Shown: piece by piece, positions 1 through 38,179 of the stretch | How positions within the stretch are numbered: the first letter of the stretch is position 1 | Layout: the number at the start of each line of letters is the position of its first letter | NCBI GenBank assembly: GCA_016649835.1 | Contig: JAENWX010000001.1 | Span: 1-47,298 of the forward strand | Reading direction: 5' to 3' | DNA: 47,298 nucleotides | Source: Minisyncoccota bacterium | GTDB lineage: Bacteria > Patescibacteriota > Minisyncoccia > Phycocordibacterales > UBA9973 | Position numbers and translations under genes: made by a program | The notes under the pieces: generated by a model | The model's input: the letters and a program-made list of their open reading frames with translations, nothing else | Database searches by the model: none | Told to the model about the DNA's origin: nothing

Positions 1-37
1 ATAAAATTTTATCTTCGTAAACTTTATCAATAAAAAA

Positions 38-70
38 GTCCTCGGATGAGGGAGGACGAGGAGCCAGACA
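38..70. repeat. GC-rich palindromic element, copy 1 (intergenic)
   Basis: GTCCTCGGATGAGGGAGGACGAGGAGCCAGACA. GTCCTC/GAGGAC can pair. Flanked by A-run/T-run inverted arms (31-80). Differs at a single position from the copy at 29231-29263. Confidence 0.7.
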
Positions 71-106
71 TTTTTTATTAAAAAAGTTTACTACGATTAA
101 AGTCCT

Positions 107-2622: not shown

Positions 2623-5600
2623 ATGCAAAATTACGATCATATAAAAATTGAAAAAAAATGGCAAAAAGAGTGGAGTAAAAATGAAATATACAAAACCTTA
2701 AATAAAGGTAAAAAAATGTATGTACTCGACATGTTCCCATATCCTTCTGGCGTGGGTCTTCATGTTGGCCACCCACGTGGCTATATAGGTAGTGATGTAT
2801 ATGCTCGTATGAAAAGAATGGAGGGTTTTAATGTGCTCCATCCTATGGGTTATGATGCTTTTGGTTTACCCGCAGAACAATATGCATTACAGCATAAAAT
2901 ACACCCTAAAAAAGCCGTAGATGAAAATGTAAAAACTTTTGAAAGACAGCTTTCTATTATTGGGCTTTCTTATGATTGGACTCGTAAGGTCAATACAACC
3001 GACCCAAAATATTATAAATGGACACAATGGATATTCCTTCAAATTTATAATTCTTGGTATGATAAAACTCAAAATAAAGCTCGTCCTATTTCAGAGCTTG
3101 AAAGTCTATTTGAAAAGAATGGTAATGAAAAAATAAATGCCGAATGTAACTCAGACACAGAATTTTTTTCATCAAAAGAGTGGAAGTTATTTTCTAAAAT
3201 AGAAAAACACAACATACTCATGCAATACCGTCTTGCTTATGAAGGACACAGTGAAGTAAATTGGTGTGAAGAAATGGGAACTGTTCTCGCTAATGATGAA
3301 ATAACAAACGACAAAAATGGTAACCCCGTTTCAGAGAGAGGAGGATTCCCGGTTATAAAAAAATCCATGCGCCAATGGTTCATGCGAATTACAGCTTATG
3401 CAGACAGGCTGCTTTCTGGTCTTGATGGATTGGAATGGAGTGACCATATAAAAGAAATTCAAAAGAACTGGATAGGAAAGAGTGATGGTAGTGAAATAGA
3501 ATTTAAGATTCGAGTCCCTGGAAAGTTTTCTTCAGGTCCTCGCCTGCCCGACCTTGCGGTTGTTCGGGCGGGGACGAGGGAGGACGAGGGGCCAGACCAT
3601 TCAGAAAATTTTTCCAGAGACTCTCTTTCTATAAAAGTTTTTACAACCCGCGCAGATACTATTTTTGGTGCGACTTATGTAGTTCTGGCGCCGGAACATC
3701 CATTAATTAATAATTACAAATTACTAATTACTAATTGGAGAGAGATAGAAGAATATATTAATGAAATAAAAAATAAGACCGATGAAGACAGAGTAAAAAA
3801 TGATAAAGAAAAAACAGGAGTAGAACTAAAAGGTATCAAAGCTATCAATCCCGCAAACGGAGAAGAGGTACCAGTTTGGATAGCTGACTACGTGCTTGCT
3901 ACTTATGGGACAGGAGCTGTTATGGCTGTGCCTGCACATGATGAAAGAGATTTTGAATTTGCGAATAAGTATGATTTGGCACTCAAGCAGGTTGTTGTTT
4001 CTAATAATTTATTAAAATCAATAGTTGTAAGTACAACCTTGGATAACGATATTGATTTTAAGTATCAGTTACAAAAAAGTAAAATTGACTTTACTTTATC
4101 AATAAGTTCAATAAGCAATCGCGAGCATATTAGAGTTGAATTAAAAAAAGAAAATCTTCAAGAGTTTATTAATATTGTACAGAAATATATAAAAGAAAAA
4201 TGTTGGGTTGAGATACTTGGAAATGAAAATATAATTGTACTTAAAAACGAAGTTCATAAAGATTTTCTGAATCACTCAGAAGAGTGGTTTAAGAAATTTT
4301 TAGAATGGGAACCTTTTATTAAAGGACAGAAAAATTTATGGGATATGCTTTCTAAAAATACTTTTTTTCAAAATTTAGTTTGTTATCAAGATGATGGAAT
4401 ATTAACTAATTCAGGAAAATTTAATGGTTTAACTTCCGAAGAAGCCCGCGCACAAATTACGAAATTTGTAAATGGAAAAATAGTTACAAAATTTAAAATG
4501 AGAGATGCAATATTTGCTCGTCAAAGATATTGGGGTGAGCCAATTCCACTTAAACATAACCCAGATGGAACAACAACAGAAGTAAAAGAAAAAAATCTTC
4601 CTTTAGAATTACCAAACATTAAATCTTATGTTTCAACTGGTACAGGTGAGTCTCCACTTGCAGGAGTTAAGTCTTGGGTGAAGGAAGGCTATGAGACAAA
4701 CACAATGCCTGGATGGGCTGGGTCTTCTTGGTACTTCTTGCGTTATATGGATCCTCAGAATAGTAAAGCTTTTGCGTCTAAAAAATCTCTTGAGTACTGG
4801 AAAGATGTAGATGTGTATGTTGGCGGACTCGAGCATGCTACTGGGCATTTACTCTACTCTCGTTTTTGGAATAATTTCTTATTTGATTTAGGTCATGTTC
4901 CAACAAGAGAACCATTTAAAAAACTTAGAAATCAAGGAATGATTTTGGCTAGTGATGGACGTAAAATGAGTAAAAGATGGAATAATGTAGTAAACCCAGA
5001 TGACATAGTAAAAAACTATGGAGCAGATACTTTGCGTATATATGAAATGTTCATGGGACCATTTGAACAAAGCCTACCATGGTCTACAGAAAGCATTATT
5101 GGCTCACGAAGATTTATAGACCGCGTCTTTAGACTTCAATCTAAAGTTACAAATAAAAAAAGTGACATAGAAGTAGAAAAAATTTTTCACAAAACACTTA
5201 AAAAGGTTAGTGAAGATATAGAAAATTTTGCTTTCAATACGGCAGTTTCTTCAATGATGATTTTATTAAATGAAATAGAAAAGTTTGAAAATATTGGAAA
5301 AGCTGAGTTTAAAATTTTATTACAGATGTTAGCTCCTTTCGCTCCTCACGTAACAGAAGAACTTTGGTCTAATACAGGAGAAAAGAAATCCATCCATAAA
5401 AGTTCTTGGCCTAAATGGGACAAAAATAAAATTGTTGATGATATGATTAAAATTGCTGTTCAAGTAAATGGTAAAGTAAGAACAGAAATTATGATATCAA
5501 AAGATATGTCAGAATCTGAAATTAAAGAAATGGCGCTAAAAGATAAAAATATTTTAACCTGGACAGAAGGAAAAGAAATAAAAAGAGTTATATATGTTCC

Positions 5601-5628
5601 CAATAGAATTGTAAATATTGTTGTTTAG
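2623..5628 (+). CDS. leuS: Leucine--tRNA ligase
   Basis: 1001 aa. HIGH-type motif (HVGHPRGY), KMSKR (KMSKS motif), VFTTRADTIFGATYVVLAPEH editing-domain signature, AVPAHDERDFEFA. Confidence 0.95.
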   Translation: MQNYDHIKIEKKWQKEWSKNEIYKTLNKGKKMYVLDMFPYPSGVGLHVGHPRGYIGSDVYARMKRMEGFNVLHPMGYDAFGLPAEQYALQHKIHPKKAVDENVKTFERQLSIIGLSYDWTRKVNTTDPKYYKWTQWIFLQIYNSWYDKTQNKARPISELESLFEKNGNEKINAECNSDTEFFSSKEWKLFSKIEKHNILMQYRLAYEGHSEVNWCEEMGTVLANDEITNDKNGNPVSERGGFPVIKKSMRQWFMRITAYADRLLSGLDGLEWSDHIKEIQKNWIGKSDGSEIEFKIRVPGKFSSGPRLPDLAVVRAGTREDEGPDHSENFSRDSLSIKVFTTRADTIFGATYVVLAPEHPLINNYKLLITNWREIEEYINEIKNKTDEDRVKNDKEKTGVELKGIKAINPANGEEVPVWIADYVLATYGTGAVMAVPAHDERDFEFANKYDLALKQVVVSNNLLKSIVVSTTLDNDIDFKYQLQKSKIDFTLSISSISNREHIRVELKKENLQEFINIVQKYIKEKCWVEILGNENIIVLKNEVHKDFLNHSEEWFKKFLEWEPFIKGQKNLWDMLSKNTFFQNLVCYQDDGILTNSGKFNGLTSEEARAQITKFVNGKIVTKFKMRDAIFARQRYWGEPIPLKHNPDGTTTEVKEKNLPLELPNIKSYVSTGTGESPLAGVKSWVKEGYETNTMPGWAGSSWYFLRYMDPQNSKAFASKKSLEYWKDVDVYVGGLEHATGHLLYSRFWNNFLFDLGHVPTREPFKKLRNQGMILASDGRKMSKRWNNVVNPDDIVKNYGADTLRIYEMFMGPFEQSLPWSTESIIGSRRFIDRVFRLQSKVTNKKSDIEVEKIFHKTLKKVSEDIENFAFNTAVSSMMILLNEIEKFENIGKAEFKILLQMLAPFAPHVTEELWSNTGEKKSIHKSSWPKWDKNKIVDDMIKIAVQVNGKVRTEIMISKDMSESEIKEMALKDKNILTWTEGKEIKRVIYVPNRIVNIVV
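3518..3617. repeat. GC-rich palindromic element, copy 2, in frame inside leuS with a nested hairpin
   Basis: GTCCTCG + [CCTGCCCGA-12nt-TCGGGCGGG, 3543-3572] + ACGAGGGAGGACGAGGGGCCAGAC. Flanked by imperfect inverted arms CTGGAAAGTTTTCTTCAG / TTCAGAAAATTTTTCCAG. Translates as SSGPRLPDLAVVRAGTREDEGPDHSENF just before the editing-domain signature. Confidence 0.75.
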
Positions 5629-5915: not shown

Positions 5916-6003
5916 AGAAAAGTATTTTAAGGATATCGGCTATCCGAAATATTAAAAATACTAAATCTTGTTCATCCGAGATATTCTTATAAATCTATAC
6001 ATA

Positions 6004-9000
6004 ATGCAACTTCTAGATAATATCATTTCTTTAAATCAAGCAGCCGAAATTTCTGGGTATACTCAGGACTATCTTGGTTATTTAGTACGCATAGGTGAGA
6101 TCAAAGGTGTTAAAAAAGGAGGGGTCTGGTTTATCACTAAAGAAGAGCTTAATGACTATCTATTGAAGAAAAAACCCATTCAAACAGACTCAAACACTAA
6201 AGATTTCTTTCAAAAAATTTGGCACAAAAAAATAGACGTTAAAGATTTCATTTCACATCTCTCTCCTCGTAATTTTTTGGTTTCCGCTCTTATTATATTC
6301 GTGGGACTTTCTTCGGTTGGAGCCTATCTTTTTGAGAAAAATAATTACAATCAAACTTTATCTTCCGCATTTCAATCCTTCGTTCTTTCGGATCATACAG
6401 AAGAGGTGAAAGCAAATAAGATAGGAGATTTACTTTCAAATGTTTCTGACGGACTGGCTTATGGATGGAGTGAATTTACTTTTGAAATTTTAGATGATAT
6501 TAAAAATTCTACAAACACAACAAAAGAATTAGTAGCTTTCGTTGGTGCTGAAGTTGCAAATAGAGTTCAACTTGTCGGAGATAGAATTACTTCCGTTTTA
6601 AATAATACAAAAAAGTTTTTTACTAATACTAAAAAATTTGTTGCAGTAGTGAAGACTCCTGTACCCGATAGGAAAGTTCCACTTGGCTCTTCACTAAAAG
6701 CTTCAGCCATTGATTCACTAAAGTCTGGTAGTGATTCTTTAACCTCTATCTCTACGGGATTAGCCAATGGTTGGATAACATTCACGGATTGGATTTTAAA
6801 TAATATTAAAAATTCAATCATTGGGACAAAAGAATTTGCAGTTTCTGTTGGTGATGGTGCAAAGTTTGTTGGTAATTCAATCACTAATGAAATCACATCT
6901 CAACGAACAGTAATCTCGGCATGGGGACATTCAATCCCAAGTAAAATAGTTTCAATCTGGAATTCAACCAAAAAGTTTGTCATTGATTTTATTTCTCAAC
7001 CACCAAAGTTAATAGTCAAAAGTCCAATAGTTATTCCTCCTTCACTGACAACAACTGCCCCAACAATTAAAGTTGAAGTTCCAGAACCAGAAGCCTCTAG
7101 TATAGCAGGCTCTCAACGACCGGCAACTTCGGCATCGGGAAGTACCACAATAATTCAACGAATTTATGAACAACCACAAACAACAATTATCAATCAAGTT
7201 GACCCAACCCTTTTCTCTAGAATCCAAGGTATTGAATTAGCTCTTCTAAATAATATCTCTCATAACTCTAATCAAACAAATAGAATATACGACAGTGTCG
7301 GTAGAAGTATATCCGGAGCTTCAAACAACATTACCGAAGAAGGAACATTAAATAATACAACAATAAATGATGCTACCCTTGTGAACTTCACTTCTACTGG
7401 AAATGCTTTATTTACCAAAGTTCCAACTCTGGCTCATGCTTTTGACCCTTCTTGGCCATCTGACATTTCAAATGTTTCCAATTCCTCACTCTATATCAAT
7501 CCTGCTTCTTCAGTATTGGATGGCAATCTGCTCGGTCTTGCTGTTGGAGGAGTTGTTAAATTTCTAGTTGATACTGAAGGTGATATTTATGGTAACAGTT
7601 TAATCTTAACTGGTTCTGTTACTCAAGGTAATACTACAGTAGAAAATCTAACAGTTGGTGGAAATATTATTTTAGGTGATGCTTCGACTGACACTTTAAC
7701 CATCAATTCCGCCAATTGGACTTTTGCCAACGATACCAACTTCGCGCTATCAGGAGGCCTTAATGGTTTATCTTTTGATACCGATACTCTTTTCATTGAT
7801 TCGCTCAATCACCGCATCGGCATCGGGACAACGAATCCGGGGAGTAAATTGGAAGTTGCTGGAACTTTTTCACAAACGGGAGCCAATACATTTGGAACAG
7901 GGACAGGGGTAATATCACTTAATGGAGCAACTACTATCACTGGCATCAATACTTTCACAACTGGTACAGGCACTGTAGAATTTAAAAATGTCTCTACCAA
8001 TATTTCTTCTATCAATCCCGTCATTGATACGACGGATGCCACCTCTACTCTATCCATAAACACAGTTACGAACAGACCGACAACCTTTGGGACAGGGCTA
8101 GTGACTATTCCAAATCTATTGATCACAAATTCTCAGGGCAATAATGGAACTATGGGTATTACTTCCAGCGCCACCACGGAAACTATTTTCTCAGTCACGG
8201 GTGCATCTCTAACTTCTGGCACAGGCATTGCGGAGAATATCACCGCCAATGCAAACAATGGGGAGATTACAAAAGGGCACACGATTACTATTACCGATGC
8301 CACTGTTGGCGGGGGCGGATACACTGCATTGTCAATCAGTACTTCGGGAGCTGGGGTTGGCTTGGGCAACAAATATCTTTTAGATATGAATCCGGGAGCA
8401 AATAAAGAAGTTGTGTTTGATTCGGCTGGAGCATTTAGACCAACCACTTCCGTTGCTTCCAACACCAACACTATTGGTTCATCCGATTTTTATTGGAAGA
8501 ATGGATATTTTGACCAAATTACTGCCAACAATATTTCCGGAGTGGTGGTCGGAGGAGCGACTTCATCCACTTCGTGGACCATCGGCTCTACTCAAGTCGC
8601 TGATGTCAATGAAAGTTTAATTTTTTATAGAAATAATCTAGGGGCTGGTAATGCTTCACTTCAATGGAACGCTGGTGCGGGCGACTTGCGGCATTTCACC
8701 GTCAATTATCCGTTTAACGCCACTTACACAGTCAATGATACTTCAATCACGACTGGTGTGAATTTATATTCTGGAAACTTGGTCAACAACACCACCACTG
8801 GCACTCAGAAACTTTTATCTCTGACCAACACCGGTACAGGTACGACAGAAACTGGCATTTATATAGGCAACACCGGCACAGGAACGACCGCTCTTGAAGT
8901 CGCTGGCACGTGGACCAATGGAATAATTACCAACAACAATTCTATTAATGCTGGGAGTGGAGCAATTACCGGTGGAGCAGGAACTTTCACGACCTTAAAT

Positions 9001-12000
9001 GGTAACACTATTACTACCGGTACAGGTATTCTTACAATATCTGCTGGCAAAACTTTAACTATTTCCGACTCAACAACATTTGGAACTAATGCGATTACTT
9101 TGGCAGGAGGAGAAGTAATAACATTCTCACCCGCTAATGCACTTTCACTTCTAACTACAGGAGGAACTTCTGTTACTTTGCCGACCACCGGCACGCTAGC
9201 TACACTCGCTGGTGCAGAAGCTCTTACAAACAAGACTATTGTTGCAGGTAGTAATACGATTTCAGGAATTATCAATGCTAATCTCTCAGGTACAGCAGGA
9301 ATATCAAACGCAAACCTTGCCAACTCTACTATCAGTGGAATATCTCTCGGCGGAACATTACCCACCCTTACTTTTGGCACCCATCTCTCAGGTATTTCTT
9401 ACAATGGTTCAACAGCGGTAACCATCGCAACAGATGCAACTGATGCAAACACTGCAGGAACTATTGTTTCAAGAGATGCATTTGGTAACTTCTCGGCGGG
9501 AGCAATTACTTCCGGCCTCATCAACTCTCAAACCATTTCCTCAAATGCTTCCTTCACTGGTACGGTTAATGCAGTTACTGGTTACAAATTAAACGGCATT
9601 GCTACTTCTGGTAATGTGCTTCGCGGGGATGGTATCAACTTCGTCAATGCTACTCTCGGTGGCTCTGATATTACTGGTGCAGCTCTTACCAAGACCGATG
9701 ACACCAATATTACTCTTACCCTAGGAGGCACTCCAGCGACTTCACTTTTGCGCGCAACGAGCTTGACCCTTGGCTGGAGTGGGTTACTTTCTCCCGCTCG
9801 TGGTGGTACTGGAGTAAACAACGGCACGAACACCCTTACTTTGGGTGGGAACTTAATTACCTCTGGAGCCTTTGCCACCACTCTCACTACCTCTGGAATC
9901 ACAGCTCTCACTTTGCCGACTTCAGGAACTCTCTATAGTACAGCGACGGGTTCCATCACGTCTCTCTCAGTACTCACTTCCGTATCTGATGAAACTGGCT
10001 CGGGGGCTTTGGTCTTTGCAACTTCTCCAACTCTAGTTACTCCAGTATTAGGAGCAGCAACTGCTACAACTGTTAATGCCTTAACTCTAACTGCAGCTGC
10101 TGATGGTTTCACTATCGCAGGTGGAACAGTATCAAGAACATTAACAGTTACAGGTGCTGATGCTTCAATCTCTGGAACACATACAGGTACATCATCTGGA
10201 ACAAACACTGGCGACAATGCTACCAACTCTCAATACTCAGGTCTTGCAGCTTCTAAATTAGATACTGGACTAGCCTTACTTCTTGCTGGAGGGACTATGA
10301 CAGGTGGAATAACTAACTCTACTTCAGTCAATCCCCTCACAACTCTAGCTGAATCTTGGATTGGGCCGAGTTCAACTACTGGTGTTTATTTCAACGGCGG
10401 CAACGTCGGGATTGGTAATACAAGCCCAGATTCAAAATTAAGTATTAATTCTTCAACAGACAATGTAAGTATTATGACTCTTCGTTTTCCTTCAGGTAGT
10501 AATGCTGATAAAGTTGGAATTTTATTTAAGGGGAATGATGGAACTTATAATATAAATTATGCAGAAATGATTGGTGGAGTAGAAAACTGGTCAAATGATG
10601 ATGGGTTCATTGGTTTTAGAACAGCTAAAGCTACTACCTTAGCAGAAAGAATGAGATTAACTTCAAACGGAACTTTGGAAGTTGGTTTTAATTACACAGG
10701 TACAAGTGGAACATTAGCAAATGGAATGATTGTTGAAGGCAACGTCGGCATCGGGACGACGAATCCTGCACAGAAGTTGCATGTTGAAGGTTCTCCTGCG
10801 ATAGGGACAACTGGTACGGAATCAATGTTGTTATTAGGACGTGCCTTGTCTGGCGGGGTTTCATTTAATCAAGCTGCAGCGTTTAAACTTGGCAGATGGC
10901 AAAATGCGGGAGGTACTTATGAATCATTTACTCGGTTAGATATTGCGTTGAAAGATGATGATGCAGTGAACGATTACAGTACAGACGTAACTGTTATGTC
11001 ATTACAAAACAACGGCAACGTCGGCATCGGGACGACGAGTCCAAACGCTAATTTGGAAGTTGTAGGAGCAACAGGAATTATACAAACTATAAATACAACA
11101 GCAGAAGGACTTGGTTATTTCACTACATTAAAATCTGAATATGCTTCTAATACAGGATATTTAGCGTTTGCTGGTGGTGGTGGTACAGGTAAAGTTATTG
11201 GTGGGGCAGCTTATGGAGTGGATACTGTTCTTTTTGCTAATAATACGGAAAGGGTTAGAATATTAAACAACGGCAACGTCGGCATCGGCACGACGAGTCC
11301 ACAAGCGAAATTACAGATTGGTTCAAATATAAATACTATTCCTGCTTCGACTGCATTAAGTACAGTAGGAGGTACAACTATTCGATTTTTGAATGGCGAT
11401 GGTAATGCTGATTATGGTTCATATTTAGCAAGTGGTGGAACAGCACAACTTACTCTTGGTTCAAGATATGCTTCCATTGATACAGATGTGTTAACTGTAA
11501 ATAACGGCAACGTCGGCATCGGGACGACGGGGCCAGGGGCGAAGTTGGATGTCGTAGGAACATCTGTTGCTGGTGGCGCAGAAGGAATATATGTAAGTAA
11601 CACCACTTCAGGTAATGCAAACAAAGCGCTTCTGGGGGTTACAAGTGCCACATTCTCTTATGGCAGTTTGGGTGGTAATGAGACCGTGTTATTCAACGCG
11701 GCGACATCGCCGATATCATTGGTTACGGCGGATGCCCAACCAATAAAATTCATTACGAATTACGCAGAGGCGATGAGGATACAATCAAACGGCAACGTCG
11801 GCATCGGGACGACGGCACCAGGAGAAAAACTTGAAGTAAATGGAAAAATTAAAGTTTTAGGTGCATTTGGGTCTATTATAGGATACAGGTCATTTGGTTC
11901 AAATTTTAGTATGGATAGCAGTGGAGTTTATACTACGACAGATACTCATGCTAGTTATGGTTATTCAGGTATGGTGGCATCTTGGGGGTCACTTCATTTT

Positions 12001-15000
12001 TTTGCTAATGAAGTAGCAACAACGGCAGGTCAAACAATTACACCATCTGAAAAAATGACAATATTAGGAGCATCAGGCAACGTCGGCATCGGGACGACGA
12101 ATCCGGTGAGCGCTTTGAATGTTGCAGGTACAACAGGATTAACATGGGGAAATGGTAGTTCGCCATCAAAAGGTTTACTGACCGTTGGTTCTCAGGGTAC
12201 GGGAGGAAGTTCTTTGTTCGTTAACACCCCTGGGTATGCATCAACATTTGGTGCTGGGTTTGGGGTTGATGGAACTTTTAGCGGGTCTACTGCAACAATA
12301 AATTTGAAAGCATTTGGAATATTTCCAGGAGATACTGGTTGGGGGTCAAACTTAACATTTTCTACAACCTTAGATAATACTCTCAATGAGAGAATGAGGA
12401 TGGATAAGAACGGCAACGTCGGCATCGGGACGACGGGGCCGACAGCTAAATTAGAGGTTGGAGGTAATTTTATTGGTTCAGCACCAGTTGATGCTATTGT
12501 AATAAGAGCATTAACTGATGGACAGTATCAAGGAGGATTTATAAATTGGAAAGCTAACATTGCTTCCAGTAACTTTTCTTTAAGTAAGATATATGGAGGG
12601 AGAGATAATGTAGAAGCTTCATCTAAATTAGGATTTTTTACTAATAGTGATATTTATAATGTTGCTGACCTATCTTCTGAAAAAATGACTATTTTAGGAA
12701 ACGGCAACGTCGGCATCGGGACGACGAGTCCAGGGTCAAAACTTGATGTGAATGGAACTATCGCTGTTAGACAATCTAGCAATGGAACAAGTGGGACACC
12801 TTTGGAAACCATAGGACTGCTTGGAACTAACAGCTTGGGAAATACTGGTATTCCTATGCCTTCCATAAATTTTGTAAACTCTTGGACTACTAACAATAAT
12901 TCATGGATGAATTTTCATGTTCGTAATAACACTATTGATACTGTTGCAATGACTCTTCTATATAACGGCAACGTCGGCATCGGGACGACGGCACCGATGT
13001 ATAAATTAGATTTGGGCAACACATCACTTGATAGTAATACATTGAGATTTGGTGTTGGGACACGGAATTCAACTGGTGCACAGTATCCTGCCAAAATAGA
13101 TTTATATGTATATGACGCTAATCCTGTTAATCAATATTTAAGATTTTATGCCCCAAACGGTAATCCAAGTGGTGCGACAGAAGCTGATAGACAAACATTG
13201 GGAATGGTCATCAATGGAAACGGCAACGTCGGCATCGGGACGACGAGTCCTGCGACACAAATGCATATTGTTGGCGTGGGTCAAAGAACCGCAGCTTTAA
13301 CTGATGCGGGCGCTAAAGGCTCAACACTTTTTCTTGAGGATCCAACAAGTGATACCGGAACCGGTGGTGCTATAACTTTTGGCGGTGGAGCAGCGAATGG
13401 TAGTGTGCCACAAGCAGCAATAAAACTTCTACTATCTAATGGAGGAGCGAATGGTACGGGTGACCTTGCTTTCTCCACTCGTAATGTGGCGTCAGATGTA
13501 GCTCTAACAGAAAGGATGAGAATATTAAATAACGGCAACGTCGGCATCGGGACGGTGGGACCGGGGGCATTGTTGCATCTTGGCAAAGCAGGGAGTCTTA
13601 ACGAATCTGATACTGCGTTTGACTTAGCCGACTCTGATACTCTGCTTAAATTGGAAAACACTGGTCCATCTTATGGCTCAGAAACAGCTTTGTCTTTAGG
13701 TGCAACGGTTTCTTCTGCCTACAGGCCAGCTGGACTCATTACGGGTAAATTTTGGGGACCCTCCGACTTTAACAGTGGACGTCTCGGATTCTCAACATCA
13801 AATTCTGGCACACTTGGCTTGCGTATGGTGATTGATGAAACTGGCAACGTCGGCATCGGGACGACGAGTCCACAAGTTCCATTAACTATTTATGGCTCTT
13901 CTGGAAATGTTGATATAAATGTAGGGAGTAGAAATGGAGTAGCGACTGGAAAAGCATTAGTATTAAGATATAATTTAACTGATGACTATGGACAGATTGC
14001 TAGTTATGATTATGCAACAGGTGCAAAAAATTTAGTTATTAACCCAATTGGTGGCAACGTCGGCATCGGGACGACGGCACCACAAGCCAAGCTGACTATA
14101 AAGGGTAATCAATTATTTGCGGGTAATCCCGATATTGGTTCTTACGGGAAGTTAGAAGCTGTCTATGATGGAAACATTGCTACTTACGGCACAGCTGCGA
14201 GTATAGATTTTTATCGTCCGATAGCAACATACGGTAATGAAGGAGAAATTCGTTTTAGCACCAGTCCAGGAGTAGGTGGTGTATCAACTCCAACACAGAG
14301 AATGGTAATAGATAAGAATGGCAACGTCGGCATCGGGATGACGGCACCGGGGGCGAAGTTGGATGTTGTATACCCAGGTACTATCGGAACATCTTTAACA
14401 ACTTTAAGGGCATTTGGATATGATGCAGATAGTTATTTTAGTGTGTCAAATGACGCAAATAATTCAGCAAATGTTGCGCTTTACAGGTCTGATACAATAA
14501 AGATGTTTGAGGTTCTTGGTCATACCGGTAAAGCATATTTTAACGGCAACGTCGGCATCGGGACGACGGGGCCGAGTGGCAAACTCGATGTTGCTGGTGG
14601 TACGGCATATTTCTCTGGTCTAAGTACAGCCGCGCGTCAAGTGATTGGTCTTTCTAGTGATGGAGTTACAAATCAAATTCAATCAACTTATCTAGGTGCT
14701 TCTAGCTTCGTGCCTCTGGCGTTTCAAGTTGGTGGGGGGGAAAAGGTCAGAATATTAACAAACGGCAACGTCGGCATCGGGACGACGGGGCCGACGTATA
14801 AATTAGAAGTGAACGGAGGAGCCACTTCCCCTTTATCTGTTTATTCAAGCAGCGATTATCAGTTAGGGCTAAGGAATACAGGAGATGCTGGTGGTTGGTG
14901 GCTTAAGAGCTATGGTGCGGGAGCATTTGCTTTACATGAAAATGGAATTGGAGATAAATTAACTTTTGATGATAGTGCAACTGGAAATGTGTATTTTCAA

Positions 15001-16026
15001 AACATAGGCAACGTCGGCATCGGGACGACGAATCCGAGTACAAATAAATTGGTTGTCGTCGGAGATATAAGAGTTGGAACAACTGGTACAGATGGTTGTA
15101 TACAAAGATTCGATGGTACAGCTCTCACCGGTTCTTGTTCATCAGATATTAGATTAAAGAAAGACATTAATTCTATCACAGGAGTTTTAGAAAACTTTGT
15201 TAACCTAAATCCAGTTACTTACAAATGGAGAGCTGATGAGTACCCAGAGAGAGGATTTGGTACAGGTATGGTTACAGGTTTAATTGCTCAAGAAGTAGAA
15301 GGTATCTTTCCTGAATTAGTAAACAAAGACAGTCAGGACTTCTTTACAGTAGACTACGGAGTGAATTTACAAATGCTATCCATACAAGCGATTAAGGAAC
15401 TCAATTTGAAAGTGGAAGATTTGTCTTCGCTTGATATAAAAAATCCTACTTCATTTGGATCTCTTATTAAATATTTCTTAGCCGATATTAGTAATGGCTT
15501 AGAGAAGATTTTTGTTAAAGAGGTAAATACTGACACTTTGTGTGTTTACGATGCTACAGGAGCCAAAACCTGTATAAATAAGGCTCAATTGGACGCATTG
15601 TTGGTTGGTGTCGGAACGACTTATAGTGGTTCCAGTAGTAGTTCAAGTGAGAGTAATGTTGTTCTATCAAGTTTTGATGAGAATTTAGTAAATGCTAAAA
15701 CAGAAGCCAATGGAAAAATAGAAACAGATTATACATCAGAAAGTTGGGGAACATTTAATTCAGCATTAACTCTAGATTTAGAATTATCAGAGACAAATGA
15801 TGAAGAAAAAATTACAAAAACAAATGCCATCAATGATGCAATTTCAGGATTAGAATTATTAATAGTGGAAGAAGTTGTTGATGTACTACCAGAGGAAGTT
15901 CCTCCAGCTGAAGAGCCGGTGGTTGAAGCTCCAGCGGAAGAACCCGTAGTTGAAGCTCCAGCGGAAGAGCCGGTAGTTGAGCCAACAGCAGTTGAAACGA
16001 TAGTTGAGCCAGCTCCAGTAGAATAA
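6004..16026 (+). CDS. Giant (~3340 aa) membrane-anchored repetitive surface protein: HTH-like N-terminus, one TM, and a Peptidase S74-like intramolecular chaperone motif in the C-terminal region
   Basis: One uninterrupted ORF; the track starts at TTG 5968 and the first ATG is 6004. The N-terminus LSLNQAAEISGYTQDYLGYLVRIGEIKGVKKGGVWFITKEEL resembles an excisionase/MerR-type HTH, followed by the TM FLVSALIIFVGLSSVGAYLF. A T/G/S/N-rich region follows, then 17 modules containing NGNVGIGTT. CSSDIRLKKDI...LIAQEVEGIFPELV matches the tail-fibre autoproteolysis motif. Confidence 0.85.
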   Translation: MQLLDNIISLNQAAEISGYTQDYLGYLVRIGEIKGVKKGGVWFITKEELNDYLLKKKPIQTDSNTKDFFQKIWHKKIDVKDFISHLSPRNFLVSALIIFVGLSSVGAYLFEKNNYNQTLSSAFQSFVLSDHTEEVKANKIGDLLSNVSDGLAYGWSEFTFEILDDIKNSTNTTKELVAFVGAEVANRVQLVGDRITSVLNNTKKFFTNTKKFVAVVKTPVPDRKVPLGSSLKASAIDSLKSGSDSLTSISTGLANGWITFTDWILNNIKNSIIGTKEFAVSVGDGAKFVGNSITNEITSQRTVISAWGHSIPSKIVSIWNSTKKFVIDFISQPPKLIVKSPIVIPPSLTTTAPTIKVEVPEPEASSIAGSQRPATSASGSTTIIQRIYEQPQTTIINQVDPTLFSRIQGIELALLNNISHNSNQTNRIYDSVGRSISGASNNITEEGTLNNTTINDATLVNFTSTGNALFTKVPTLAHAFDPSWPSDISNVSNSSLYINPASSVLDGNLLGLAVGGVVKFLVDTEGDIYGNSLILTGSVTQGNTTVENLTVGGNIILGDASTDTLTINSANWTFANDTNFALSGGLNGLSFDTDTLFIDSLNHRIGIGTTNPGSKLEVAGTFSQTGANTFGTGTGVISLNGATTITGINTFTTGTGTVEFKNVSTNISSINPVIDTTDATSTLSINTVTNRPTTFGTGLVTIPNLLITNSQGNNGTMGITSSATTETIFSVTGASLTSGTGIAENITANANNGEITKGHTITITDATVGGGGYTALSISTSGAGVGLGNKYLLDMNPGANKEVVFDSAGAFRPTTSVASNTNTIGSSDFYWKNGYFDQITANNISGVVVGGATSSTSWTIGSTQVADVNESLIFYRNNLGAGNASLQWNAGAGDLRHFTVNYPFNATYTVNDTSITTGVNLYSGNLVNNTTTGTQKLLSLTNTGTGTTETGIYIGNTGTGTTALEVAGTWTNGIITNNNSINAGSGAITGGAGTFTTLNGNTITTGTGILTISAGKTLTISDSTTFGTNAITLAGGEVITFSPANALSLLTTGGTSVTLPTTGTLATLAGAEALTNKTIVAGSNTISGIINANLSGTAGISNANLANSTISGISLGGTLPTLTFGTHLSGISYNGSTAVTIATDATDANTAGTIVSRDAFGNFSAGAITSGLINSQTISSNASFTGTVNAVTGYKLNGIATSGNVLRGDGINFVNATLGGSDITGAALTKTDDTNITLTLGGTPATSLLRATSLTLGWSGLLSPARGGTGVNNGTNTLTLGGNLITSGAFATTLTTSGITALTLPTSGTLYSTATGSITSLSVLTSVSDETGSGALVFATSPTLVTPVLGAATATTVNALTLTAAADGFTIAGGTVSRTLTVTGADASISGTHTGTSSGTNTGDNATNSQYSGLAASKLDTGLALLLAGGTMTGGITNSTSVNPLTTLAESWIGPSSTTGVYFNGGNVGIGNTSPDSKLSINSSTDNVSIMTLRFPSGSNADKVGILFKGNDGTYNINYAEMIGGVENWSNDDGFIGFRTAKATTLAERMRLTSNGTLEVGFNYTGTSGTLANGMIVEGNVGIGTTNPAQKLHVEGSPAIGTTGTESMLLLGRALSGGVSFNQAAAFKLGRWQNAGGTYESFTRLDIALKDDDAVNDYSTDVTVMSLQNNGNVGIGTTSPNANLEVVGATGIIQTINTTAEGLGYFTTLKSEYASNTGYLAFAGGGGTGKVIGGAAYGVDTVLFANNTERVRILNNGNVGIGTTSPQAKLQIGSNINTIPASTALSTVGGTTIRFLNGDGNADYGSYLASGGTAQLTLGSRYASIDTDVLTVNNGNVGIGTTGPGAKLDVVGTSVAGGAEGIYVSNTTSGNANKALLGVTSATFSYGSLGGNETVLFNAATSPISLVTADAQPIKFITNYAEAMRIQSNGNVGIGTTAPGEKLEVNGKIKVLGAFGSIIGYRSFGSNFSMDSSGVYTTTDTHASYGYSGMVASWGSLHFFANEVATTAGQTITPSEKMTILGASGNVGIGTTNPVSALNVAGTTGLTWGNGSSPSKGLLTVGSQGTGGSSLFVNTPGYASTFGAGFGVDGTFSGSTATINLKAFGIFPGDTGWGSNLTFSTTLDNTLNERMRMDKNGNVGIGTTGPTAKLEVGGNFIGSAPVDAIVIRALTDGQYQGGFINWKANIASSNFSLSKIYGGRDNVEASSKLGFFTNSDIYNVADLSSEKMTILGNGNVGIGTTSPGSKLDVNGTIAVRQSSNGTSGTPLETIGLLGTNSLGNTGIPMPSINFVNSWTTNNNSWMNFHVRNNTIDTVAMTLLYNGNVGIGTTAPMYKLDLGNTSLDSNTLRFGVGTRNSTGAQYPAKIDLYVYDANPVNQYLRFYAPNGNPSGATEADRQTLGMVINGNGNVGIGTTSPATQMHIVGVGQRTAALTDAGAKGSTLFLEDPTSDTGTGGAITFGGGAANGSVPQAAIKLLLSNGGANGTGDLAFSTRNVASDVALTERMRILNNGNVGIGTVGPGALLHLGKAGSLNESDTAFDLADSDTLLKLENTGPSYGSETALSLGATVSSAYRPAGLITGKFWGPSDFNSGRLGFSTSNSGTLGLRMVIDETGNVGIGTTSPQVPLTIYGSSGNVDINVGSRNGVATGKALVLRYNLTDDYGQIASYDYATGAKNLVINPIGGNVGIGTTAPQAKLTIKGNQLFAGNPDIGSYGKLEAVYDGNIATYGTAASIDFYRPIATYGNEGEIRFSTSPGVGGVSTPTQRMVIDKNGNVGIGMTAPGAKLDVVYPGTIGTSLTTLRAFGYDADSYFSVSNDANNSANVALYRSDTIKMFEVLGHTGKAYFNGNVGIGTTGPSGKLDVAGGTAYFSGLSTAARQVIGLSSDGVTNQIQSTYLGASSFVPLAFQVGGGEKVRILTNGNVGIGTTGPTYKLEVNGGATSPLSVYSSSDYQLGLRNTGDAGGWWLKSYGAGAFALHENGIGDKLTFDDSATGNVYFQNIGNVGIGTTNPSTNKLVVVGDIRVGTTGTDGCIQRFDGTALTGSCSSDIRLKKDINSITGVLENFVNLNPVTYKWRADEYPERGFGTGMVTGLIAQEVEGIFPELVNKDSQDFFTVDYGVNLQMLSIQAIKELNLKVEDLSSLDIKNPTSFGSLIKYFLADISNGLEKIFVKEVNTDTLCVYDATGAKTCINKAQLDALLVGVGTTYSGSSSSSSESNVVLSSFDENLVNAKTEANGKIETDYTSESWGTFNSALTLDLELSETNDEEKITKTNAINDAISGLELLIVEEVVDVLPEEVPPAEEPVVEAPAEEPVVEAPAEEPVVEPTAVETIVEPAPVE
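10738..15030 (+). repeat. 17 in-frame copies of the GC-rich core GGCAACGTCGGCATCGGGACGACG
   Basis: Core starts at 10738, 11014, 11272, 11506, 11791, 12076, 12412, 12703, 12967, 13222, 13534, 13843, 14053, 14320, 14545, 14764 and 15007. Fourteen copies are identical over 24 nt and three differ by 1-2 nt. Spacings of 210-336 nt are all multiples of 3. Confidence 0.95.
15907..15987 (+). repeat. 27-nt tandem repeat x3 encoding AEEPVVEAP
   Basis: Read directly at the extreme C-terminus of the giant ORF. Confidence 0.85.
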
Positions 16027-20222: not shown

Positions 20223-20255
20223 TCTTCAGAAAGGGCCTTAGGCCCTTTCTGAAGA
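20223..20255. repeat. REP-like perfect palindrome, copy 1 (inverted orientation)
   Basis: TCTTCAGAAAGGGCC-tta-GGCCCTTTCTGAAGA, 15-bp stem. It begins 8 nt after the murJ stop and lies 26 nt upstream of the transposase ATG. Confidence 0.85.
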
Positions 20256-20265
20256 ATTCGTATTA

Positions 20266-20955: not shown

Positions 20956-20966
20956 GGCCCTTTCTG
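20942..20966. repeat. REP-like palindrome, copy 3, supplying the transposase stop codon
   Basis: CAGAAAGGGCC-taa-GGCCCTTTCTG. The loop TAA (20953-20955) is the ORF stop, in a different frame from copy 2. Followed by (GAGT)3. Confidence 0.85.
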
Positions 20967-21130
20967 AGTGAGTGAGTGTTATTTGAGGCCTTTGATTTTA
21001 AAGCTTTTTTTGGTAGTATAGACCTATGTCTCCGCTCGCGATGTGTATGTCATAATCTACGGGATAGTTTATAATAGAAATAAGGTTTATATTACTAAAT
21101 AAAATTAATAAGATACGTCCCATCTAACGA

Positions 21131-24138: not shown

Positions 24139-24160
24139 TAATTTAATTTACAATGACGTA

Positions 24161-24199
24161 TTATAAGAGCATTCAGGTTTTACCTGAATGCTCTTATAA
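24161..24199 (+). terminator. Intrinsic terminator-like hairpin after grx
   Basis: TTATAAGAGCATTCAGG-tttta-CCTGAATGCTCTTATAA, 17-bp stem, ending 3 nt before tRNA-Arg. Confidence 0.6.
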
Positions 24200-24202
24200 T
24201 TT

Positions 24203-25086: not shown

Positions 25087-25094
25087 CAATAAAT

Positions 25095-26380: not shown

Positions 26381-28573
26381 CTACGCCTTCGGCCACTTCT
26401 CAACAATTAATAATCTCTTATTTTCAACTGCCCCGCCTGCAGAAGCATTTCGGGCAGGCATCATGCCCCATATTTCTTCTGTAACAAAAGGCATAAATGG
26501 ATGAAGAATTTTTATAGATTTTTCTAAAATTTCAACCAACAAAGTTTGTCTTGATTGCTTTGCTTTTTCATCGTCACCAGCAATAATTGGTTTACTTTCC
26601 TCTATAATTTTATCAGCAAATTTATCCCATATGTAATGATATATTTTTTCAGATGCCATATAAAAACGAAAGTTTTCCATATCATTAGTTATATCTTTAA
26701 TTTCAGTATCAAGTTCACCCATTATATTTCTATCAATTTCATTTAGTTCTGATTTATGAAATTTTTCTGGAATATTAGAAAATACAAATCTTGATATGTT
26801 CCATAATTTATTTGCAAAATTTTTATATCCTTTAATTCTATCTCTTGAAAGGGCAAGATCCATTCCAGGAGTATTTCCAACCACAAGTGCTATTCGCAGT
26901 GCGTCTGCTCCAAAAATATCAATAAGTTCTACAGGATTAACAACGTTACCTTTTGATTTACTCATTTTTTCTCCCTTCTCATCATTTACTAATCCATGGA
27001 GATAAACATTTTGAAAGGCGACTTCGTTGCGTAAATATAATCCAAAAATAACCATTCTTGGTATCCATTTAAAAATTAGGTCTCGGCCTGTTTCCATCAC
27101 ACTAGTAGGATGATATATATCTAAATCTTTTGTATTAGGGTATCCAAGAGAAAGAAGTGTCCATTGTCCAGAAGAGAACCATGTATCAAATGTATCAGTA
27201 TCTTTTCTGAGTTCTCCTCCACAATCACATTTTTTTAATTCATTGTTTAAATCAGAAAATCCTTTTTTGCAAACATTACATATTTTAGCTGGAATAGGAA
27301 TACCCCAGACAATCTGCCTTGATATATTCCAGTCAATAGTATTTGTCATCCAATATCTAAAAATTTTTTCATAATTTTCTGGATAGAATTTTATTTTGCC
27401 ACTATTTACAGCATCTAGTGCTCGGTCTGCAAGAGGTCTCATTTTAACAAACCACTGGTCTTTAATTTGTGGTTCTATAATAGTGTTACATTTAAAACAC
27501 ACTTTTACATTGTGTTTATAAGATTCATCTATTTTAACTAAAAGTCCTTTTTCTTTTAACTTTTCAACAATCATGGGTCTTGCTTTAGAAATGTGAATTC
27601 CTTCAAATTCTCCAGATATAGCCAGTAGTTTTCCTTTCCAGTCTATTATTTGCTCCTTTTCTAGGTTGTGTCTTTCTGCTATCTCAAAGTCAACTTGGTC
27701 GTGCCATGGAGTTATGGTCATAACTCCTGTTCCAAATTCCATATCAACACTTTCATCTTTTATTATTGTTGCAGTAATGGGACCATTTATCCATTCCAGT
27801 TCTATTTTTTGACCATCTTTATATTCCTCGTATCTTTTATCTTTTGGATGCATTACTACGTATTTATCTCCGAATTTTGTTTCAGGACGAGAAGTACTTA
27901 TTACAAAAGGACCATATTGAAGATAATAAAATTGTTCAGTTCGTTCTTCAAATTCAGTTTCAACTTCAGAAAGGGAAGTCTGATGTTTGGCACACCAGTT
28001 TACGATACGGTCACCACGATAGATTAATCCATCTTTAAACATTTTGTCAAAAGTTTCTTGAACGGTTTTTACTATTTCTGGGTCCAGTGTAAATTTTTCT
28101 CTTGACCAGTCACAAGATGCTCCAAGTCTACGAATATCATCTTCCATGAATTTTTTATTAGAAATAGTAAAATCATATATTTCTTTATATAAATCTTCTG
28201 GTGTCATTTCAAATCTAGAACGGCCTTCTTTTTCTAATTTACGTTCATAAACAATTTGAGTTTCAAATCCAGCGTGGTCGGCTCCCGGTACCCATAGAGT
28301 ACGTTCACCTTTCATTCGATGATATCTTGTCATTATGTCTTCAAGTGTTACGAAAAGTGCATGTCCAGCATGTAGTCGTCCGTTTGCATTTGGTGGAGGC
28401 ATTACTATTGTGAAAGGTTTTGCTTCTTTATCTGTCACACCTTTTTCAATACAAATATCTGGATTAAAATATCCACTTTCTTCCCATAGTTTGTAAATAC
28501 GATCCTCTGTTTCTTTGGGGTCATATGGTTTTAAAAATTTCGGGTTTATGTTATTGTTCTGGTCATTATTCAT
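26381..28573 (-). CDS. valS: Valine--tRNA ligase (short form, no C-terminal coiled coil)
   Basis: 730 aa. PPPNANGRLHAGHAL, KMSKSKGN, and a Cys-rich insertion (CNVCKK...CDCGG). Confidence 0.9.
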   Translation of the reverse strand: MNNDQNNNINPKFLKPYDPKETEDRIYKLWEESGYFNPDICIEKGVTDKEAKPFTIVMPPPNANGRLHAGHALFVTLEDIMTRYHRMKGERTLWVPGADHAGFETQIVYERKLEKEGRSRFEMTPEDLYKEIYDFTISNKKFMEDDIRRLGASCDWSREKFTLDPEIVKTVQETFDKMFKDGLIYRGDRIVNWCAKHQTSLSEVETEFEERTEQFYYLQYGPFVISTSRPETKFGDKYVVMHPKDKRYEEYKDGQKIELEWINGPITATIIKDESVDMEFGTGVMTITPWHDQVDFEIAERHNLEKEQIIDWKGKLLAISGEFEGIHISKARPMIVEKLKEKGLLVKIDESYKHNVKVCFKCNTIIEPQIKDQWFVKMRPLADRALDAVNSGKIKFYPENYEKIFRYWMTNTIDWNISRQIVWGIPIPAKICNVCKKGFSDLNNELKKCDCGGELRKDTDTFDTWFSSGQWTLLSLGYPNTKDLDIYHPTSVMETGRDLIFKWIPRMVIFGLYLRNEVAFQNVYLHGLVNDEKGEKMSKSKGNVVNPVELIDIFGADALRIALVVGNTPGMDLALSRDRIKGYKNFANKLWNISRFVFSNIPEKFHKSELNEIDRNIMGELDTEIKDITNDMENFRFYMASEKIYHYIWDKFADKIIEESKPIIAGDDEKAKQSRQTLLVEILEKSIKILHPFMPFVTEEIWGMMPARNASAGGAVENKRLLIVEKWPKA
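26432..26458 (-). repeat. CCTGCC...GGCGGG hairpin element in valS (sense orientation, in frame)
   Basis: Minus strand: GCCTGCCCGAAATGCTTCTGCAGGCGGGG, encoding MPARNASAGGA near the C-terminus. Confidence 0.65.
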
Positions 28574-28733: not shown

Positions 28734-30086
28734 TTATAAGGATAAATTTCCTTGTGCCTTTATTGAATTTATGTTTTTTACTATTTTATTATTTTGATAT
28801 TGAAAGTATCCTGCAATAGCAATCATAAGAGCATTGTCACCAGTTAAATTTTTGGAAGGAAAATGAACATTGGTTTTAAGTTTGTCTGCCGATGAGGCAC
28901 GATTATTTTCTTTAATTTTTTCTATTATTGTTGTTTGTAAATGTTTATTTGCAGAAACACCGCCACCTACTATCAATGTATTTATTTTATATTGCTTTAT
29001 TGCCTTAATGGTTTTATGAGTAAGCACCTCTACAACAGAGTCTTCAAATTCTCTTGCTATTTTTTGTTTAATATTACCTTTTTCTAAAATATTTGGATTT
29101 TTTTCTTTTAAATCTCTTATCAAATATAGCACCGCTGTCTTTAGTCCAGAAAATGAAAAATCATAATCCTTAGAATATATCATTGGTCTAGGTAATTTAA
29201 TTTGCTCCAGAGTATTATCTGATTTTTCAGGTCCTCGGATGAGGGAGGACGAGGTGCCAGACCGTGAAAAATCAGACAATACTCTTCCGCTTACGTTTTC
29301 TCTTTCAATATTAGCTATCTTTGAAATCTCTGGTCCTCCAGGGTATGGTAGTCCCAGCATGCGAGCTACTTTATCAAAAGCTTCTCCTGCTGCATCGTCG
29401 CGAGTTTGTCCTATTTTTTTATATTTCATCCAGTCTTTTATTAGTATCAGTTCTGTGTGTCCTCCTGAAACCAAAAGAGAGAGCATTGGGAAAATAATTT
29501 CTTTCTCACTAATTGTGAAAGTTTTTTCTTTTTTAGGAAATATAGAAAAAATATGACCTTCCATGTGGTTTACTTTTACTATTGGAATATTCCAGTAAAT
29601 ACTTAATGCCTTAGCAAAACTAATTCCCACCCAAAGAGCAGGGACCAACCCTGGTCCTGTTGTTACAGCAATAGCATCTATGTTGGGTTTTTTAATAAAT
29701 GGAATATGTTTAGGCCATAGTTCTTTGAGCTCTGTTTCTCTCTCTAGAATTTTATCAATTTTTTTAAAATCTTTGTCAGTATATAATGCTGTTTTATTTT
29801 TTTTGTATAGTTTTGCTTCTTTTAGTACTTTTTCTAAAATATTTATTATATTTTTCCCGTGTTCACGCTTGGCCATCATGGGGAAAACACCACCATATTC
29901 AGCGTGTATAGCTATTTGTGAAGACAAATCATTACCAAGAATTTTAAATTTAGTTTTAGATCCAGATTGATGTACTTCTATTACAGCAAGAGCCGTCTCA
30001 TCACAGGATGTCTCTATGGCCAATATTTTCATCCCAGTACTAAAATTTTTAATATTTATTTTTACTTTTTTAATATTTTTATTCAT
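28734..30086 (-). CDS. tsaD: tRNA N6-adenosine threonylcarbamoyltransferase TsaD
   Basis: 450 aa. ILAIETSCDETALAV, HMEGHIF, SGGHTEL, DFSFSGLKTAV. The true start may be the internal MKILAIE (30032). Confidence 0.9.
   Translation of the reverse strand: MNKNIKKVKINIKNFSTGMKILAIETSCDETALAVIEVHQSGSKTKFKILGNDLSSQIAIHAEYGGVFPMMAKREHGKNIINILEKVLKEAKLYKKNKTALYTDKDFKKIDKILERETELKELWPKHIPFIKKPNIDAIAVTTGPGLVPALWVGISFAKALSIYWNIPIVKVNHMEGHIFSIFPKKEKTFTISEKEIIFPMLSLLVSGGHTELILIKDWMKYKKIGQTRDDAAGEAFDKVARMLGLPYPGGPEISKIANIERENVSGRVLSDFSRSGTSSSLIRGPEKSDNTLEQIKLPRPMIYSKDYDFSFSGLKTAVLYLIRDLKEKNPNILEKGNIKQKIAREFEDSVVEVLTHKTIKAIKQYKINTLIVGGGVSANKHLQTTIIEKIKENNRASSADKLKTNVHFPSKNLTGDNALMIAIAGYFQYQNNKIVKNINSIKAQGNLSL
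29218..29276. repeat. GC-rich palindromic element, copy 3, in frame (antisense orientation) inside tsaD
   Basis: Core GTCCTCGGATGAGGGAGGACGAGGTGCCAGACC (29231-29263), flanked by a perfect inverted repeat TCTGATTTTTCA / TGAAAAATCAGA. Encodes ...SGTSSSLIRGPEKSD... inside an insertion before LPRPM. Confidence 0.8.
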
Positions 30087-38159: not shown

Positions 38160-38179
38160 CCTGCCTTCCGGTAGGCAGG
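38160..38179 (+). repeat. CCTGCC...GGCAGG hairpin (intergenic relative of the in-gene hairpin family)
   Basis: CCTGCC-ttccggta-GGCAGG. The T-G position of the in-gene copies is a T-A pair here. Confidence 0.5.

Follow-up and report, generated by a model that had tools for sequence, protein, structure and literature searches.

The leuS gene of the DNA described here (positions 1 to 47,298 of contig JAENWX010000001.1, from a Minisyncoccota bacterium; hereafter the window) carries an inserted palindrome. With a probability of roughly 0.7, this feature is a copy of a dispersed, non-autonomous, selfish repeat that resembles the Rickettsia palindromic elements (RPEs) and is tolerated in surface loops of proteins. 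The repeat, named family A here, recurs within the window and in other genomes; its copy in leuS is a lineage-specific insertion in a loop, genic copies obey the constraints of translation, the arms of the hairpin covary, and copies decay. Family A is widespread and has apparently gone undescribed. A full-text literature search retrieved no description of such elements in the Candidate Phyla Radiation (CPR), Patescibacteria or Parcubacteria; this agrees with a preliminary description of the window, which knew of none in this kind of genome.

The window has a G+C content of about 32%, and all positions refer to its full 47,298 nt. It contains three copies of a 32-nt GC-rich core: an intergenic copy at 38-69, a copy in tsaD at 29231-29262 and a split copy in leuS at 3536-3597. 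The 32-mer itself, GTCCTCGGATGAGGGAGGACGAGGNGCCAGAC, occupies the first two sites; the leuS core differs from it by one T to C change (GAT to GAC). The preliminary description had noticed all three copies, which are real, but its end coordinates for two of them (38-70 and 29231-29263) were one base too long. A core search with up to three mismatches gave two matches, where none was expected from 100 shuffles. When a covariance model of the family was run on the window, the three known copies were the only matches with a core; the leuS match lies at 3520-3614 and has a 33-nt insertion in the core loop.

In the window, each core copy forms the tip of a long hairpin whose arms are particular to the locus. 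The inverted flanks of each copy could be located, as first proposed, and the folds of all three have z-scores of -2.6 to -6.7. The 32-mer had been taken for the whole palindromic insert; it is instead the asymmetric apex of a longer palindrome. The family-A unit is about 72-87 nt long, with this GC-rich apex standing on AT-rich arms of about 20-30 bp.

The leuS insertion is in frame, as described earlier, and the open reading frame (ORF) at 2623-5628 is open; its size is 34 residues rather than about 30. The segment of window LeuS that covers the insert (GPRLPDLAVVRAGTREDEGPDH is the stretch concerned) has 65 residues against 31 in empty orthologues, a difference of 102 nt (72 + 30). The loop has 34 residues, compared with 24-30 for other copies, because a second hairpin of 30 nt (family B) occupies the core loop. 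The sequence confirms that this hairpin, at 3543-3572, splits the core after GTCCTCG.

The preliminary description suggested looking for copies beyond the window, and these exist. A scan for the exact 22-mer GAGGGAGGACGAGGNGCCAGAC, with one genome per species, yielded 93 stretches (numbered with L below). Together with the window they hold 100 exact-core copies; about half of the copies are genic and the rest intergenic. Among the 80 stretches listed, all hosts are metagenome-assembled genomes (MAGs) of Paceibacteria/Nomurabacteria (Patescibacteria-type); some stretches are labelled 'Saccharibacteria' or 'uncultured bacterium'. The two source names listed for RAYT/LeuS are likewise of Patescibacteria-type MAGs. 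Several MAGs have seven or eight exact-core copies each. A phage origin was considered and rejected: there were no exact matches in IMG/VR and no blastn match in 50,697 phage records.

The LeuS site was surveyed in 120 Paceibacteria homologues (numbered with P), in 110 of which the segment from NWIGKS.G to FTTRADT is readable. About 65 of the 110 are empty and have 31 residues (...FKIKNHDEKIKVFTTRADT). Family A gives 55 residues (+24) in P0001, P0005, P0035 and P0076; it is degenerate in P0048 and P0061, and remnants are found in P0020, P0033 and P0053. An element with a variant core occupies the site in P0014, P0017 and P0019, and another occupant is a distinct palindrome encoding SSEVQPPKSVEVGPL. 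The suggestion of a lineage-specific insertion is thus upheld; alleles 91-94% identical differ in its presence. The site state differs between P0001 and P0004 (90.7% identity) and between P0076 and P0106 (93.9%), and P0017 and P0028 (95.7%) carry two different cassettes. The closest relatives of the family-A LeuS copies have an empty, ancestral-type loop, which deletion could not recreate. Other inserts are also seen at this turn. P0060 and P0015 have another small cassette (NPSPTGEDLGEVELES), and in P0015 an endonuclease-like domain of 130 residues (DUF559/PF04480 and PF18741) is nested in frame within it, at a site corresponding to about 3510-3625 of the window. Ten other LeuS homologues have whole domains of 140-240 residues at the same point.

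The same differences can be followed in the DNA. L096 has 72 nt more than L097 in leuS and 86 nt more in the spacer upstream, while their flanks are about 95-97% identical; L094 has 72 nt more than L095 in leuS. Between L098 and L099, identity is 97% until it breaks off sharply at ATCAAAATT and ATAAAAGTA; these boundaries enclose unrelated cassettes of 87 nt and 42 nt, respectively. Homologues of the window's left arm, altered by compensatory changes, are present in L081, L094 and L096 within their LeuS copies; arms that are homologous and differ in a compensatory way in four family-A LeuS copies indicate a common origin. Around the L096 insert, divergence from L097 is higher than elsewhere over about 40 nt on the left, where the sequence resembles the L081 allele, and about 15 nt on the right. 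From these comparisons we infer that the filled LeuS allele may have moved between lineages by recombination.

Mapping on structures places the insert in a surface loop, as the preliminary description had thought worth checking. In an alignment with Thermus thermophilus LeuRS, residues 77-114 of the window fragment replace residues 237-240, the beta-hairpin turn just before VFTTRPDT; the segment is missing from every solved LeuRS structure that could be aligned. The complete LeuS, modelled with AlphaFold2 (51-sequence alignment, mean predicted local distance difference test score, pLDDT, of 76), has strands at 286-298 and 332-341. Residues 302-332, between both strands, have pLDDT below 50 and no secondary structure, and the insert is predicted to be disordered.

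The tsaD gene (ORF 28734-30086, minus strand) carries its copy in antisense orientation, translated as ...LSDFSRSGTSSSLIRGPEKSDNTLE... The insert adds 72 nt, a net 24 residues, relative to TsaD of the related genome L118, where the site is empty; against PDB entry 8iey it amounts to about 31 extra residues, placed between residues 187 and 194 of that chain. LeuS and TsaD each gain a net 72 nt although the hairpins measure 82-87 nt, and the outermost hairpin pairs join inserted DNA to host-like flank. This is clearest in L098, where AATTTTGAT mirrors the host sequence ATCAAAATT that is also present in L099. It was also considered whether the core inserts into loops of pre-existing hairpins; this was rejected, as no hairpin is present at that position in LeuS and TsaD alleles that are empty.

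Both proteins contain a further insertion. At 4000-4330 (LeuS residues about 460-580) there are about 150 additional residues, identified as NUDIX (PF00293) by precomputed Pfam matches; this insertion is found in about half of the LeuS relatives (forms of about 1000 residues), and pLDDT is below 50 at 463-476, 491-502 and 532-581. In TsaD, a second insertion (YKKNKTALYTDKDFKKIDKILERETELKELWPKHIPFIKK; about 30-40 residues) lies at 29800-29920 (residues about 93-132); it has no family-A or family-B core and is absent from PDB TsaD chains and from L118 TsaD.

Across the family, 49 of 101 copies are genic, that is, inside ORFs of at least 200 aa. Of these, 37 are in sense and 12 in antisense orientation, in about 17 gene families. 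Hosts recognised by Pfam are LeuS (two sites), TsaD, Tgt, RNase HII, UvrC, TruB, Dus, TrmD, an S-adenosylmethionine (SAM) methyltransferase and Nramp; UvrA, UvrB, LigA, PolA and aminopeptidase N were recognised by reading the sequences. The copies use five of the six reading frames, and from these the core yields five peptides (RSSDEGGRGARP, GPRMREDEEPDH, VLGRGRTRGQT, RSGSSSSLIRGP and GLAPRPPSSED), which means that the copies have no protein product in common. Where the frame would turn GAT of the core into TGA, T is present in none of eight copies (five loci), compared with 56 of 96 elsewhere (Fisher p=0.0015). The degenerate LeuS copies P0048 and P0061 have kept length and frame, and all inserts, degenerate ones included, are multiples of three. 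This sequence pattern indicates that ribosomes read through the inserts and translate them.

Intergenic copies fill their spacer, and the next start codon lies 36-45 nt past the core. Of those with ORFs on both sides, 44 of 47 are in sense orientation between co-directional genes. The common spacer form has GTCCTCCCTCATCCGAGGAC followed by a T run on the opposite strand, an intrinsic-terminator pattern; genic antisense copies lack the T run. An opposite-strand terminator would break the operon if the element were turned, so counter-selection of antisense copies explains the sense bias in spacers. The intergenic copy of the window is of this kind: it lies in sense orientation directly 5' of tsaC/sua5 (ORF 107-715), and its minus strand fits the terminator pattern. 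The syntenic stretches L094-L096 and L098 have no room for a family-A copy upstream of Sua5 and no covariance-model match there. Replication strand does not set orientation, since 8 of the 12 antisense genic copies are also antisense to local GC skew and neighbouring genes. A role of the apex GGAGG as a ribosome-binding site is unlikely, since window genes lack Shine-Dalgarno (SD) motifs; an SD-like motif was found upstream of 1 of 30. In many window ORFs the ATG is preceded at 7-15 nt by a TATAAT-like box, which together with the scarcity of SD motifs suggests leaderless or very short-leader mRNAs.

The copies are built alike: a helix of 2-6 bp closes the structure, the stem measures about 20 bp, an A is bulged out after GAC(C), and the apex is invariant. 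Most also have a 3x3 internal loop, whose left side reads 5'-TWC and whose right side reads 5'-TNC. Covariation was measured on an ungapped alignment of 58 non-redundant copies, from which the covariance model was also built. Standard pairs fill 81.4% of the structure cells in the arms, compared with 56.6% in shuffles and 39-56% in slid controls; double-sided changes occur in 454 cells, against 154 in shuffles. The model also retrieved diverged copies with a 36-nt variant core, GTCCTCGGACGAGGGGGACGGGAGCCGGTGCCAGAC; L098 has a related form with a compensatory change of CGG/CCG to TGG/CCA. Within the core, only the helix UCCUC/GAGGG fits both the 32-nt and the 36-nt form, the core being invariant in the set that was ascertained by it. 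Decay is visible at L050:2817-2913, where the core is eroded by G to A changes and the arms are intact.

The hairpin nested in the leuS core had been described as a second hairpin; it belongs to a separate, recurrent family, CCTGCCCG...CGGGCGGG. A metagenome scan for split cores gave 17 stretches, of which 13 are true split family-A cores (L101, L102, L104-L108, L112-L116); the other four are GC-rich chance matches without the GCCAGAC end. In L026, L039, L042, the window and the 13 metagenome stretches, family B always sits between core positions G39 and G40. The insert is mostly 30 nt long, with other sizes of 27, 19 and 18 nt. It occurs in at least ten distinct arm classes whose other members are without it, and the other family-A LeuS copies have no family-B hairpin; this patchiness therefore points to repeated gain or loss at one position. 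Family B also occurs alone inside ORFs of other loci. Directly after one of the free-standing hairpins of the window (Table 1) there is a perfect 27-bp palindrome with a 2-nt loop (38182-38245; CCCCCACACCTATATTTATGACAGGCT / AGCCTGTCATAAATATAGGTGTGGGGG), which scores against the arms of the family-A model and has no core.

Table 1. Family-A and family-B features in the window
Feature	Position	Strand	Basis
leuS host gene, 1001 aa, insertion at residues ~297-333	2623..5628	+	ORF translation; homologues named leucyl-tRNA synthetase; PDB LeuRS alignments
leuS copy, left arm GAGTCCCTGGAAAGTTTTCTTCAG	3512..3535	+	complementary to 3598-3623
leuS copy, family-A core 5' part GTCCTCG	3536..3542	+	sequence
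leuS copy, nested family-B hairpin CCTGCCCGACCTTGCGGTTGTTCGGGCGGG, 30 nt, 10 codons	3543..3572	+	sequence
leuS copy, family-A core 3' part GACGAGGGAGGACGAGGGGCCAGAC	3573..3597	+	sequence
leuS copy, right arm CATTCAGAAAATTTTTCCAGAGACTC	3598..3623	+	complementary to left arm
Intergenic family-A copy, arms 11-37 / 70-97	11..97	+	core 38-69; covariance model 86 bits
tsaD family-A copy, arms 29204-29230 / 29263-29290	29204..29290	+	core 29231-29262; covariance model 89.8 bits
Free-standing family-B hairpin, 27 nt, near 3' end of class I aminoacyl-tRNA synthetase ORF 26381-28573 (minus)	26432..26458	-	sequence
Free-standing family-B hairpin, 30 nt, in Mur ligase ORF 30791-32221, flanked by direct repeat GATAAA	31682..31711	+	sequence
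Short intergenic family-B hairpin CCTGCCTTCCGGTAGGCAGG	38160..38179	.	sequence

If the leuS feature is a selfish repeat, family A would land in short operon spacers and in protein-coding genes. Genic copies would survive only where they are in frame, free of stops and in a surface loop; a survivor would be translated as a loop of 24-30 residues (34 in leuS). Copies would come and go on short time scales, allelic recombination at a given locus would move them between related genomes, and afterwards they would decay by AT-biased mutation and deletion. The selfish character of family A and its spread by recombination are presumed. Complementarity of the arms would be maintained by intrastrand template switching or by a propagation step that depends on the hairpin.

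Several points weigh against this explanation. The strong covariation of the arms and the invariant apex could reflect a selected RNA or DNA structure, and the apparent conservation of the core is inflated because the search pattern ascertained the exact-core set. In every class, A.C mismatches on the core strand of the arms are about twice as frequent as G.T mismatches. For family A, neither a transposase nor a target duplication nor a terminal inverted repeat common to all copies was found, so that mobility is read only from distribution. In four gene families the element sits at the same protein site in opposite orientations, with the arm asymmetries turned as well; this and the recurring net size of 72 nt are not explained by a simple random-insertion model. 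Finally, all data are MAG or metagenome assemblies.

One possible source of mobility is encoded in the window. The gene at 20281-20955 encodes a RAYT-type Y1 transposase (PF01797, Y1_Tnp); it lies between murJ and lepA and is inserted relative to L094 and L095. It has more than 4000 relatives; JGI gives homologues the name 'REP element-mobilizing transposase RayT' (REP, repetitive extragenic palindrome), and the relatives listed come mostly from Paceibacteria/Nomurabacteria where a source is named. Its flanks are formed by a family-C palindrome, CAGAAAGGGCC-TTA/TAA-GGCCCTTTCTG, at 20223-20258 (inverted) and 20933-20968; the loop TAA of the latter is the stop codon of the RAYT gene. Within the gene, at 20451-20486, there is a third family-C copy, in frame and read as QKGPKALSE; RAYT homologues conserve its PKALS segment as well as an LP(D/E)(S/R)A end.

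Family A might accordingly be a hairpin of the REP/REPIN kind that this RAYT cuts and pastes as single-stranded DNA. This would supply a mechanism for the selfish repeat and not an alternative identity, and the connection is a candidate that we consider unlikely. The presence of a PF01797 protein with so many relatives is in its favour, as are the same-strand TWC...TNC trinucleotides at the foot of most hairpins. Insertion without target duplication, as in the IS200/IS605 family, also fits: in the L096 spacer, 86 nt lie between AAATA(A/G) and TAC, and comparison with L097 reveals a single clean pair and no target-site duplication. However, the hairpin on either side of the RAYT gene is another one, which itself covaries between genomes (CAGAAAGGGCC-TAA-GGCCCTTTCTG in the window and L118, CAGACAGCGCC... 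in L119). L118 and L119 have no family-A copy within 10 kb of RAYT, and the TsaD site of L118 is empty. A tblastn search with the window RAYT of 890 kb around family-A copies found only the window RAYT itself, and REPs are extragenic and 20-40 nt long.

A broader proposal, about as improbable as the RAYT connection, is that family A, family B and a GAGGTCCAACC-type cassette belong to one hairpin-guided DNA insertion system, which would write short peptide loops into essential genes at preferred sites and swap them between strains. The source of new insertions would be either synthesis with fold-back or template switching or a Y1 HUH enzyme that works on single strands; a few flanking host bases would be copied in inverted form, and the element could flip in place. 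The net gain of 72 nt from hairpins of 82-87 nt, together with a hairpin that has the 3' end of a tRNA as an arm, suggests fold-back or template-switch copying, which could keep arms complementary without selection. The tRNA in question is tRNA-Arg (24203-24275), flanked by long perfect hairpins at 24150-24200 and 24267-24315. The last 9 nt of tRNA-Arg form the start of the left arm of the downstream hairpin, whose right arm thereby repeats functional tRNA sequence in inverted form. If such a system existed, it would amount to an undescribed cassette-like turnover of loops in CPR proteins.

A host-selected RNA or DNA signal, acting in processing, stability or protein binding in spacers and in mRNAs for tRNA modification and DNA repair, has somewhat poorer prospects again. 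Compensatory variation of the arms is very strong, orthologous copies included, and extends to the CGG/CCG to TGG/CCA change in the 36-nt variant core. The apex is invariant, an optional stem at a fixed loop position is a feature of many structured RNAs, and spacer copies are in sense orientation; terminator avoidance accounts for this last bias. A selected signal is difficult to reconcile with patchy presence among alleles 91-97% identical, with eroded and partly deleted copies, and with a quarter of genic copies being antisense to the mRNA. Mismatches compatible with wobble pairing favour the strand opposite the sense mRNA; G.U asymmetry was also considered as a sign of mRNA-level folding, and rejected because it favours that strand in all classes. 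A search of Rfam 15 at gathering and permissive thresholds matched no family; only three tRNAs reach threshold in the window, and the best sub-threshold match of one family-A copy has E=0.32.

It is very improbable that the segment is removed or bypassed and never enters LeuS, as with an intron, an intein or a translational hop. GC-rich hairpins in AT-rich coding sequence do recall the bypass elements of yeast mitochondria, but stops are avoided exactly where the frame would create one and even degenerate inserts are multiples of three; the segment is also too short for an intein and has no ribozyme match. Ancestral LeuS sequence or an assembly artefact has next to no credibility, as only the open reading frame speaks for it, while the segment is absent from most readable Paceibacteria LeuS and from all aligned LeuRS structures and the element occurs in independent NCBI, JGI, ENA and Logan assemblies.

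The window contains other repeats. A giant ORF (5968-16026, 3352 aa) has 16-18 repeats spaced 210-620 nt; a 27-nt GC-rich unit, AACGGCAACGTCGGCATCGGGACGACG (NGNVGIGTT), is near-identical in DNA while the surrounding repeat is 60-75% identical. The 3' end of tRNA-Phe (24791-24864) has an exact repeat 73 nt downstream and a partial one 150 nt further (24840-24865, 24913-24938, 25063-25088); this looks like the footprint of an integrated element. Runs of the heptamers AATTAAG/AATTACG are found at gene ends (699-764, 32209-32260, 32406-32471 and 40365-40403), and two of the runs are followed by a shared motif, AATTAACCCA(G)TAGGTGA.

For annotation, family-A repeats account for some of the unusual additional segments of CPR proteins, and copies can serve as markers for strain-level recombination. 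The beta-turn of LeuS is a hot spot with at least five cassette types in close relatives; such hot spots indicate which loops of a protein can accommodate insertions. The mechanism can be approached through the covarying arms, the nested second hairpin and the inversions at one site.

Several known systems share features with family A. [quoted passage not shown] MITEs have terminal inverted repeats common to all copies and target-site duplications, whereas the arms of family A differ between loci and its clean insertion pair has no duplication. No insertion sequence with ends matching family A was seen in the loci examined. The GC clusters of yeast mitochondria comprise several families of GC-rich palindromes scattered in a very AT-rich genome; they are occasionally found in frame in a coding gene (var1) and undergo gene conversion between alleles. 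Unlike family A, they are organellar, lack long AT-rich covarying arms and include few coding insertions.

REPs are extragenic imperfect palindromes of 20-40 nt with a conserved GTAG head. The REP/REPIN-RAYT systems resemble family A in having short hairpin repeats, a RAYT (present in the same window) and no target duplication. In contrast, family A is not the hairpin that flanks RAYT in the window, L118 and L119, half of its copies are intragenic, and its unit is 72-87 nt. No GTAG head is seen at the 5' foot of family A; the foot on the core strand is TWC, often within GCTWC.

The closest likeness drawn in the preliminary description was to RPEs, and the habit is indeed shared, by analogy and not by homology. 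RPEs are palindromic repeats scattered through the genome; roughly half the copies sit in frame in housekeeping genes that are unrelated to one another, where they are translated into additional surface segments (PMC10969869). As with family A, the genome is a reduced one, copies also lie in non-coding DNA and no transposase is known; the genic share of family A is 49 of 101. The sequences look unrelated, though RPE consensus sequences were not part of the comparison, and the phylum differs. RPEs measure about 100-150 bp, and each encodes one conserved peptide; family A is shorter, is read in five frames as different peptides and flips orientation at the same site; its invariant apex is rich in GC, its AT-rich arms covary and differ from locus to locus, and a second family of hairpins is nested in it. 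In-frame colonisation of housekeeping genes by palindromic repeats has so far been treated as a peculiarity of Rickettsia. A second, unrelated family in Paceibacteria, which have very small AT-rich genomes, suggests that it is a general outcome where genome reduction and hairpin repeats meet.

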